DNA of 64,000 bases. Source: an uncultured Chloroflexia bacterium (GTDB taxonomy: Bacteria; Chloroflexota; Anaerolineae; B4-G1; SLSP01). The position numbers and the translations under genes are program-made. The notes under the pieces were generated by a model that had not been told where the DNA came from, searched no databases, and saw only the letters and a program-made list of their open reading frames with translations. Position 1 is the stretch's first letter. The number at the start of each line of letters is the position of its first letter. Shown here one piece after another: positions 61,596 to 64,000 of the stretch. The stretch lies in contig CAVVUS010000014.1 in assembly GCA_963751345.1 (NCBI GenBank), positions 32,001-96,000 of the forward strand, written 5' to 3'.

Positions 61596-64000
61596 TCAAT
61601 TGTCGTGGATTGGCACCCCCACCAGCATCCGGCTCTCCACGTCGACCAGCGGATCGACCTCACCGGCTGCCGCGGCCCGGGCGAAGACGAGGCCGGGGTA
61701 TTTTGCCCTCAACGCCCGCGTCAGCACGCTGAAGCTCTTGGTCACATTTCGCTCGCGGAAGGTCGCGCCCATCTGCTCCCACTGAGTCAAGATACCGGCC
61801 AGCCCCCGTCGCGCACCCGCGACGCAGGCGAACAACTCCTCAGGCGTCAACCCCTCGCTGTAGCCATGCCGCACGATGACAACACGGCCATGCTCGTCGA
61901 CCACGGGGCCGCGCCCCGCCACGAGCCACGCCATCTGCTCCAGTCCTGCGCCGCGCGCCTTGATCATCAGGATCTGCGGCCCAAGGTCGGCGGCCGTGGT
62001 GTCCGTCATGGCAGCTAACGCTTCTTGAACGGCCTCTCCATACATCTGCCACAACGCCGAATCCGTTGAGTCGGGCCGAGAGGGGAGCGGTGTGGTCTCC
62101 CCGACGAAGGGGCTCAGGGACGCGCCAGAGACTTTGACCGTCTCGAACCCACGCTGCATCAGTCGCTCGACAGCCAGCATCGCCGCACCCACGCTCTCCT
62201 CCCCCGCTCCCCTTGGAAGCAGCTTGGAGAGTGCGTCGGTCACGGTGGCAGCCGTGACAAAACCGCCGGAAGTGTTGACCGGCTGCCCGACGATCTCCGA
62301 GATCTCCGCCAGCCCCGCCGGATCGAGGCTCAGCTTCGCCAGCCCCCAGAGCGCATCCAGCGCGGGCACCAACGAGGCAAGCAGCCCGGGATCGCGCATC
62401 AGATGGCCGGCGACGGAGAGTCGCTCCCCGGCTTCCTGCTGGGCCGCTTCCGTGATAGGCAGGAAGACGGCGGCCTGGTCGCCGTCGAAGTCGGCATCCA
62501 ACCACCTGCACAGTGCAGGATGGAGGTGAAGCGCGTCATCCGGAACCCGGACGGGATGGAACGCCAGGAGTGCGGTGGGTGTCAGGGTCGGCGCGCGGTT
62601 GATGTAGACCCACGAGTGGGCCATCACGGCGTCAAGCACCTGCGAGGCGCGCTCGCTCCTGGCTGGGACGGCCTTCCCGTCGCCGGTCTCCCGTACGACG
62701 AGGGGACCAAAAAGCGCCCACGCCATCTCCTCGGGCATGCCGATCTGTTCCAGCGTCAGCTCGGCGGCGGGCGCCAGCACCGTGCGGGCACTGAAGAGCT
62801 CGCGGGCGCCGAGCCGTAACTGGACCGGCGTGAGGAGCGCGTCGAAGAGGGCACGGACGTGGCGTTCGAGCTGCGCGGTCGCGTCATCTACCAAGGTCTT
62901 GGGCGTCTGTGCGGCGAGCATACGCCTCACCCTGTCGTTGGCCTCGACCACCGCGCGATAGAGCCGCGGGAGCTCGTCCGACGCCTCCCACCAGCCTCCG
63001 GGCGGGAAGAGTACCTCCCTGAGGCCACCAACACGTTCCCTCTCGCCCGGATCGCCGATCTCGGTCAGGCGACGCTCGGGCAGCCACGGATGGGGGACCG
63101 GTCGCGCCAGCTTCAGAGCATCCTCCTGTGGCGGCGCGAAACGGAACGCCAGGCCGTTCTCCCCCAGCTCTGCCTCGATCCCCGCGACCCGAAGCCGGTC
63201 GGCCAGCTCCGCCAACAGTGGGGTCGGCGGAGGGGCCTGGGCCACAGGACCGGCGGCCAGCCGCTCTGCCAGCGTGCCGGCATCCTGCCCGCCCACTGCC
63301 GGGTGTTCAGATTCTCGCGGATGATCTCAAAGGCGCCCAGATCCCGCAGCATGAAGGTCTCCATCTCGCCCGTGCGCTGGCCCCATCGCTCTCCCGTCAG
63401 GACCAAGCGTCACGCAGCTTGTCCTTGGCGAGATGGTACAACCGCCCCCAGTAGACCCAGCCGACGGTGCTCGGCGCGTCGAGCGGCGGGCCATCCTTGC
63501 CCTGCGTGAGCGTCACCATGCCCGACTCGGGCAATCCGGCAGCGACCAGGCGCGCGCGAAGCTCATCCGCCGAAGGCGCACCAAAGGGCGGTACGATCGC
63601 CGGGTTCGCCTCGGCCTTCGCGACGCTGCCCAGGACCGCCTCGCGGATCTGTCCGAAGTTCATCCGCCGGTGCAGGTTGGCGAAGTTGAAGACCAGGTCG
63701 ACCGGCGTGCCATCGGGAAGATGCGGCATCCGGTCGTCGGGCAGGATCTGGCCGACCACCCCCTTCGTCCCGTGGCGATTGCTCATCTTGTCGCCGATCC
63801 GGAGCGCATAGGGGGTGTCGAACCGCCGCGCGCACGACTCGCTGACGACGATGGCATCCTCGTACGTCCCCGGCCCCCAGGAGACAAAGGCCGTGAGCAG
63901 GTTGCGACCGGCCCAGAAGTCCGGCGACAGCAGGGCGTCCGGCTCGTTGCCGGTCTGAACCCACGCGGGCTCCGGCATCTGCTGCACGATCCACTGCCTC
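61596..64000 (-). CDS. Miniaturised, divergent RNA polymerase beta-beta' fusion-like protein (5' part outside window; frameshifts near 63400 and 63300)
   Basis: beta motifs YEDAIVVSE, GDKMSNRHGTKG, MPHLPDGTPVD, RMNFGQ, HLAKDK, GQRTGEME; beta' motifs LYRAVV, NRAPTL, DADFDGDQ (DADFDGD at 62478-62498), EGLT...GARRGL. Confidence 0.85.

Follow-up and report, generated by a model that had tools for sequence, protein, structure and literature searches.

A compact single-chain β-β′ fusion encoded with a dedicated sigma factor in a Chloroflexia bacterium: a candidate minimal sigma-dependent RNA polymerase

Results

A fused β-β′ gene at the end of the window

The DNA analysed here, 64,000 nucleotides from an uncultured Chloroflexia bacterium (assembly GCA_963751345.1, contig CAVVUS010000014.1, positions 32,001 to 96,000; G000:C14:32001-96000 in our coordinates), is referred to as the window. 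On its minus strand, a gene that runs from past the window end down to 61596 joins the counterparts of the two large subunits, β and β′, of bacterial RNA polymerase (RNAP). The window portion holds the C-terminal three quarters of what is predicted to be a compact β-β′ fusion in one chain of ~1040 aa; the ATG of the gene lies outside the window at C14:96745 (window-equivalent 64745). The gene is collinear with a family of ~1040-aa proteins, the nearest full-length relative being P0121 (1056 aa).

Three minus-strand frames in the window show RNAP homology, and a fourth, N-terminal stretch lies beyond the window end. Since P0121 residues 1–128, 123–443, 450–486 and 487–1054 match these frames in order by tblastn while the frame changes, the four pieces are a single predicted gene with three frame breaks. 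The features are listed below along the gene; frame breaks were located by nucleotide alignment with G002, a close relative with about 92% nucleotide identity to this copy, and residue correspondences come from alignment of the family profile to solved β and β′ chains (8i23_C, 7xya_C and 8i23_D).

Near window-equivalent 64383, minus strand: frame break 1, two extra bases relative to G002.
63397..64000, minus strand, open at the window end: β-like segment (frame piece 2); Pfam Rpb2_6, E 2.5e-40; tblastn match to P0121 123–443.
63910..63942, minus strand: 11-residue linker PDALLSPDFWA from QTGNE to GRN; family 204–268 corresponds to 8i23_C 625–689, and 261–297 to 758–794.
63796..63837, minus strand: 14-residue linker SCARRFDTPYALRI at the flap position, from EDAIVVSE to GDK; 8i23_C passes from 794 to 931 and 7xya_C from 829 to 1073.
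63406..63414, minus strand: frame break 2, where this copy has single extra bases at 63414 and 63406 that G002 lacks, after which the frame-1 open reading frame (ORF) terminates at 63397.
63296..63409, minus strand: short middle frame piece with the β C-terminal motif LTGERWGQRTGEMETFMLRDLGAFEIIRENLNTR; P0121 450–486; weak match to Pfam Rpb2_7.
63296, minus strand: frame break 3, where this copy is one base shorter than G002.
61596..63296, minus strand: β′-like segment, an ORF of 566 aa that opens with GTG; homology begins at ~63299; Pfam Rpb1_2, E 3.7e-20; tblastn match to P0121 487–1054.
62841..62972, minus strand: clamp coiled coil (LPRLYRAVVEANDRVRRML ... QLERHVRALFD); weak alignment to 8i23_D 268–319; model helices 592–612 and 617–638.
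62814..62840, minus strand: 9-residue stretch ALLTPVQLR from RALFD to LGARELFSAR; 8i23_D 320–353 (34 residues) is unmatched.
62478..62498, minus strand: catalytic metal-binding motif DADFDGD, read from the sequence.
61797..61853, minus strand: start of the bridge-helix block (GLTPEELFACVAGARRGLA); query 443–526 corresponds to 8i23_D 722–807.
61617..61688, minus strand: last conserved β′ block; query 541–565 corresponds to 8i23_D 1142–1166 (weak, −1.8 bits).

The β-type barrel motifs GDK...RHG.KG (GDKMSNRHGTKG) and YEDAIVVSE are both present, as is a β′-type barrel with a motif of the DxDGD type (DADFDGD, within the Rpb1_2 match).

Modules lost and kept relative to bacterial RNAP

The names flap, rudder, switch 2, lid, trigger loop, jaw and zinc finger are used here for those stretches of the solved chains, unmatched in the fusion, to which we take them to apply. 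At the flap site the fusion has 14 residues, compared with 136 skipped in 8i23_C and 243 in the 1357-aa 7xya_C; the initial annotation, made from the sequence alone, was right to place a short linker here but put it at about 12 residues. That annotation had also described the insert between QTGNE and GRN as shrunken, in agreement with a spacer of 11 residues where 8i23_C has ~68 more (689 to 758), and had noted the absence of the β′ N-terminal Cys4 zinc finger: the first 120 residues of the β′-like part contain zero cysteines, and this part aligns to β′ only from chain residue 268 onward. Between the coiled coil and the LFS.R block, the rudder/switch-2 site is nearly empty, as had been proposed, with 9 residues versus 34 in 8i23_D (320–353). 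The clamp coiled coil, described as kept, does align to β′ 268–319, weakly (1.5 bits), and forms two long helices in the structure model.

Two further losses escaped the initial annotation, as did the three frame breaks and the start of the gene past the window end. Most of β is missing from chain residues ~157 to ~447, and only 14 residues link the bridge helix to the last β′ block, versus 334 in 8i23_D. We take the missing part of β to be the β lobes and the stretch after the bridge helix to be the trigger loop and jaw. In these alignments the two catalytic barrels are retained in the family, together with the clamp coiled coil and bridge helix, and whole peripheral modules are gone.

Family conservation, structure model and selection

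All 120 of the longer homologues listed are 993–1067 aa in length and carry Rpb2 and Rpb1 domains in one chain, and in a scan of 1.84 billion cluster representatives 133 outranked the first long protein (2309 aa). In sources that name them, the homologues are filed as 'hypothetical protein'. The deletion junctions are identical throughout alignments of 25 and 102 sequences, apart from one insertion (P0177) and one shorter form (P0176) at the flap site. The D-F-D-G-D motif is invariant in the 25 sequences and present in at least 90% of the 102, and GDK and R.G..G are invariant or nearly so in both alignments. Against the models for the full-size subunits the fusion falls well below the cut-offs, with 171.6 bits versus 801 for TIGR02013 (rpoB) and 119.1 versus 963.5 for TIGR02386 (rpoC).

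An AlphaFold2 model built from the 102 sequences has a mean predicted local distance difference test score (pLDDT) of 93.8 and a predicted template modelling score of 0.92; it replaces an earlier, poor model from 25 sequences (pLDDT 70, with the β core below 50). In the final model, pLDDT falls below 50 solely at residues 582–589, a variable loop preceding the coiled coil. With this model as the query, Foldseek returned bacterial β and β′ chains. The initial annotation had proposed a structure-based comparison with bacterial RNAP as a check, and by VIA-align 518–519 residues of model residues 1–532 superpose on bacterial β at 2.8 Å (Z 30), with an identity of 30–31%, compared with 19–23% for those chains of eukaryotic Pol II and Pol I that were listed. 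Because the junctions are constant, the model is confident and the superposition is on bacterial β, we conclude that the losses are excisions of whole modules from a bacterial-type core.

The ratio of nonsynonymous to synonymous substitution rates (dN/dS) relative to G002 is 0.11–0.21 in all four frame pieces, compared with 1.5–2.0 in a wrong-frame control. Together with the constant junctions, the high pLDDT and the close superposition, these values bear out the earlier proposal of modular deletions under selection: the evidence supports a conserved family rather than decay, with deletions that are clean and selected.

Further variants of the gene were seen among the relatives. The copy in G002 (locus L004) has 72 extra in-frame bases opposite window position 63021 that resemble a local duplication and fall in the variable, low-confidence loop preceding the coiled coil. 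At L038:3252-5837 (title Brocadiaceae), an uninterrupted 861-aa shorter form that still matches query residues 9–1052 may be an even more reduced variant.

An ECF-type sigma factor is encoded directly upstream

The initial annotation had suggested that the enzyme may need a dedicated partner encoded upstream of position 64000. Directly upstream of the fusion, outside the window at C14:96745-97361, lies an ORF for a sigma factor of the extracytoplasmic function (ECF) type, with Pfam matches to sigma region 2 (Sigma70_r2, E 2.2e-16) and region 4 (r4_2, E 5.3e-13). It passes TIGR02937 (108.5 bits versus a cut-off of 42.9) and reaches no equivalog-level family at cut-off. A sigma orthologue (41–84% identity) precedes the fusion in 35 of 36 related loci, the lone exception having just 52 nt of upstream sequence, and the stop and start codons of the two genes usually overlap or abut. 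Sigma orthologues of at least 64% identity occur in exactly the five of 41 related genomes that carry the fusion; elsewhere the best ECF match is at most 42%. Clustering of the ORFs of at least 80 aa that flank the 36 loci gave no other conserved neighbour, anti-sigma factors included, and no alpha or omega gene is linked to the fusion. That the fusion is encoded with a dedicated sigma partner upstream is thus strongly supported, as had been anticipated. Prediction of a complex between sigma (A2 69–269) and the β′ half (A1 452–1056) gave scores of 0.15 and 0.08 relative to a mark of 0.32, and counts neither way.

In one Poribacteria locus (L032:3233-5638) a gene for an 801-aa S9-family peptidase stands between sigma and fusion; this is the sole separated pair.

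The sigma gene carries a promoter found once per genome

Upstream of the sigma gene, the dyad TGAAC-N16-GTGTC is present in 30 of 34 loci, with the exact 16-nt spacing in 29 of the 34. The promoter consensus, TGAACnT-N12-CGGTGTCnT, comprises −35 and −10 elements at ECF spacing; in the genome studied here the likely ATG follows 18 nt after the site, and a Shine-Dalgarno-like AGAGG lies in the interval. When scored by weight matrix, this site reaches 40.0 bits and the next best in the 5.4-Mb genome 18.2. Four other carrier genomes (6–14 Mb) each contain the string TGAACNT-N12-CGGTGTC exactly once, at the sigma promoter; a fifth has no match, its site deviating at one position. At spacings of 10–21 nt, the half-sites TGAAC and GGTGTC show no enrichment in the genome studied here (1–8 matches per spacing). 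Since the match is unique in each scanned genome, its own two-gene operon is the only recognisable target predicted for the sigma factor.

Sigma region 4 normally sits on the flap tip, and the initial annotation had held that an enzyme without a flap would not use region 4 or −35 recognition. The partner does not support this as stated: the sigma factor keeps region 4, and its promoter keeps a −35-like TGAAC at 16-nt spacing. Because region 4 and the −35 element are both conserved, −35 recognition is presumably used somewhere in the system, and the flapless enzyme itself may not be the user.

Distribution

The fused gene occurs in five of 22 genomes of the genus and in none of 19 from other genera of the order, and its N-terminal 130 residues were found in three of 401 genomes of a phylum sample. 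By record title, members come from Anaerolineae, Caldilineaceae, Ktedonobacteraceae/Dictyobacter, Poribacteria, Armatimonadota, Phycisphaerae and other Planctomycetota. Every searched genome that carries the fusion also has ordinary rpoB and rpoC matches. No family member was found in phage records or IMG/VR; PADLOC gave no family for P0121 and one marginal match (E 0.0064) for the sigma factor, and in PHROGs only the general β, β′ and sigma families were matched.

Frame breaks in the window copy

The three break sites hold four indel events within 3.15 kb, none in a homopolymer, and the window copy could be read either as misassembled or as a pseudogene. Contigs from three public runs, about 90–95% alike to this copy, are in frame at all three sites; at break 2 they are without the two bases (L005 3298–3307), and at break 3 the contig of run X1 has an extra G (L005 3189). 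This read-derived comparison covers four runs and consists of relatives' contigs together with a few pieces at least 99% alike that lie outside the break sites, and among the public runs none holds half or more of the sampled words (best share 0.12).

Other conserved genes of the assembly are also broken. The housekeeping rpoB gene is read in two frames that overlap (723 + 624 aa; G000:C10:143861-147767), the switch coming directly after ...TYTLQKY. Two class-I aminoacyl-tRNA synthetase loci lie in separate open frames, at G000:C18:171080-173120 and G000:C13:205-1296 (609 + 349 aa; 570 aa with an internal TGA + 533 aa), and a GH92 glycoside hydrolase is split into 461 + 326 aa at L013:6041-8369 (+), equivalent to G000:C14:99041-101369 (profile 1–193 and 188–464), with its break at a distance of 3 kb from the sigma gene. 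Among the long genes checked, two dnaE genes and rpoC are intact. As rpoB and the synthetase genes are split, the assembly must contain indel errors, and an assembly artefact is slightly more likely than a true pseudogene.

We give somewhat less weight, though a good deal, to the alternative that, irrespective of the family's role in other genomes, the window copy is a true pseudogene that lost its function recently. The clustering of four indel events outside homopolymers speaks for inactivation; so do a break density (3 sites in 3.15 kb) ~9 times that of the other long conserved genes checked, which together hold 4 breaks in ~36 kb, and the occurrence of broken copies in L004, L040 and L044. 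Set against them are the splitting of essential genes (rpoB and the synthetases) in the same assembly, the low dN/dS, which implies selection over most of the divergence, and the lack of in-frame stops within the frame pieces. In addition, a 1-nt indel immediately after the stop codon (L005 1482) distinguishes the assembly from contigs of two runs that are at least 99% alike to it. The gene is a single ORF of 1012–1096 aa in 28 of 36 loci, and it lies in pieces in the three just named. Programmed frameshifting was considered and set aside: it would require three sites in one gene whose homologues are uninterrupted in those 28 loci.

Some details of the broken copies may be recorded here. In L040 and L044, whose titles carry 'MFD...bin' naming, the gene is in three and four pieces, and in L044 the sigma ORF runs on into the polymerase N-terminus. 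The G002 copy (L004) has a 1-nt frame break of its own opposite window position 62360.

Neighbouring genes

By translation, window 57457–61538 holds an HlyD-like 552-aa ORF (minus strand), a response regulator (59296–60018, plus strand) and a histidine kinase (60018–61538, plus strand); the response regulator/histidine kinase pair is convergent with the fused gene. In the interval that separates the fused gene from the histidine-kinase gene, directly after the stop codon of the former, sits an inverted repeat (GAAACGAGTGA ... TCACTCGTTTC; window 61540–61595) followed by TTTT on the gene strand. A terminator scan of window 61400–61750 made no call; with a loop of 11 nt, the repeat fell outside the criteria applied. 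At about 61589–61593, G002 and contigs of two runs that are at least 99% alike are one base short.

Discussion

Proposed working and alternatives

The reading we favour, at slightly better than even odds, is that sigma factor and fusion make up a self-regulating module of two genes for a minimal sigma-dependent RNA polymerase. The sigma factor, made initially from transcription by the host polymerase, would turn on its own operon, giving positive autoregulation of the sigma-fusion pair. Its region 2 would dock on the retained coiled coil, whereby the mini-enzyme would become a sigma-dependent polymerase. Because the flap is absent, the enzyme would hold region 4 differently or not at all, and would probably ignore hairpin-dependent pausing and termination signals and the usual flap-binding factors. 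The stronger claim, that sigma and fusion are a self-contained orthogonal transcription system and the smallest sigma-using cellular-type RNA polymerase, is tentative, and we would place it somewhat short of an even chance. Two observations count against a sigma-directed mini-enzyme: the canonical −35 element and ECF spacing suit a flap-bearing host core at least as well, and a regulon of one operon leaves such an enzyme without an output.

An alternative is that the sigma factor serves expression only, through the host core, and that the fused enzyme is sigma-independent like YonO, the single-chain polymerase of the Bacillus prophage SPβ, which works without sigma. Such an enzyme might act on special templates (single-stranded, damaged or foreign DNA) as part of a mobile or defence-like accessory module. 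The patchy occurrence in genus, order and phylum sample, the spread over several phyla by record title and the flanks that differ between loci all fit this picture, as do the loss of the usual seat of region 4 and a promoter resembling an ordinary ECF promoter. We nevertheless regard it as unlikely, at roughly one chance in a handful: the family is absent from the phage records and IMG/VR searched, PADLOC gave no match, the coiled coil that is the normal sigma dock has been kept, and strict pairing with one sigma lineage exceeds what expression control would need. Less probable still, to the point of being doubtful, is that the fused protein is a core mimic which titrates its sigma factor, an anti-sigma-like negative feedback encoded in the usual position of an anti-sigma gene. 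Its place immediately downstream of the sigma gene, often translationally coupled, would suit that role, and no anti-sigma factor is conserved nearby while the promoter motif targets the operon alone; a sink, however, would have no need of catalytic and nucleic-acid-binding motifs conserved over ~1000 residues, or of low dN/dS over the entire length.

If the enzyme is active with its sigma factor, the minimal sigma-dependent polymerase would define how little of bacterial RNAP suffices for sigma-dependent initiation, and would show, as an experiment of nature, what the flap, rudder, zinc finger and trigger loop contribute. Were it indeed orthogonal, a single ~115-kDa chain with no need of alpha or omega would be recruited by one ECF sigma factor to a promoter unique in the host genome, a compact two-gene expression tool; it would do so without the flap, trigger loop and rudder, through which most regulators and several antibiotics act. 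Distant bacteria (Chloroflexota, Poribacteria, Planctomycetota and Armatimonadota by titles) would be maintaining a second polymerase with no recognisable target other than its own operon.

Comparison with known systems

In the full texts searched (supplements aside), we found no description of this family or of a sigma-linked β-β′ mini-fusion. The portion of PMC2919709 consulted covers YonO, pGKl2 Orf6 and NCgl1702 and not the present family; the main text of PMC7826278, in the part available, does not mention it, and the supplementary ECF group tables of that paper may list the sigma factor's genomic context.

With the bacterial RNAP core and its ECF holoenzymes the fusion shares β/β′ cores that are 30–31% identical over ~519 superposed residues, the DFDGD and GDK...RHG.KG motifs, the bridge helix and the clamp coiled coil, and its partner shares sigma regions 2 and 4. 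It differs in being one chain of ~1040 aa, compared with ~2500 aa or more for bacterial RNAP, and in being without the flap, the β′ N-terminal zinc-finger region, the rudder and the stretch after the bridge helix. Full-length rpoB-rpoC fusions (NF011417 and NF007172, ~2840–2890 positions) likewise place β before β′ in one frame, but are complete housekeeping enzymes, for whose models P0121 scores 175 and 165 bits versus cut-offs of 4632 and 5372.

Closer in design are two reduced enzymes. As far as it is described in the part of PMC5467207 consulted, YonO is also a single ~100 kDa chain, a homologue of multisubunit RNAPs with most peripheral modules gone, and has very distant homology only to those enzymes. 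The fusion, which matches Pfam Rpb2_6 at E 2.5e-40, is set apart by this description of YonO; moreover, YonO is phage-borne, unlike the present family as judged from phage records and IMG/VR. The Orf6 protein of the yeast killer plasmid pGKl2, according to the portion of PMC2919709 consulted, is an Rpb2::Rpb1 fusion of 982 aa; the second-largest and largest subunits are fused here too, about half of the coding sequence is deleted and the size is similar. Compared by description, Orf6 differs in its eukaryotic, plasmid origin and in having no sigma partner. As classified by sequence, the Chloroflexia fusion is a derivative of bacterial-type β and β′, of the two-barrel kind and in concept most like YonO and the Rpb2::Rpb1 fusion of the yeast plasmid. 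It is distinct from both by its closeness to bacterial RNAP, by its chromosomal, non-phage setting and, above all, by its dedicated sigma factor.

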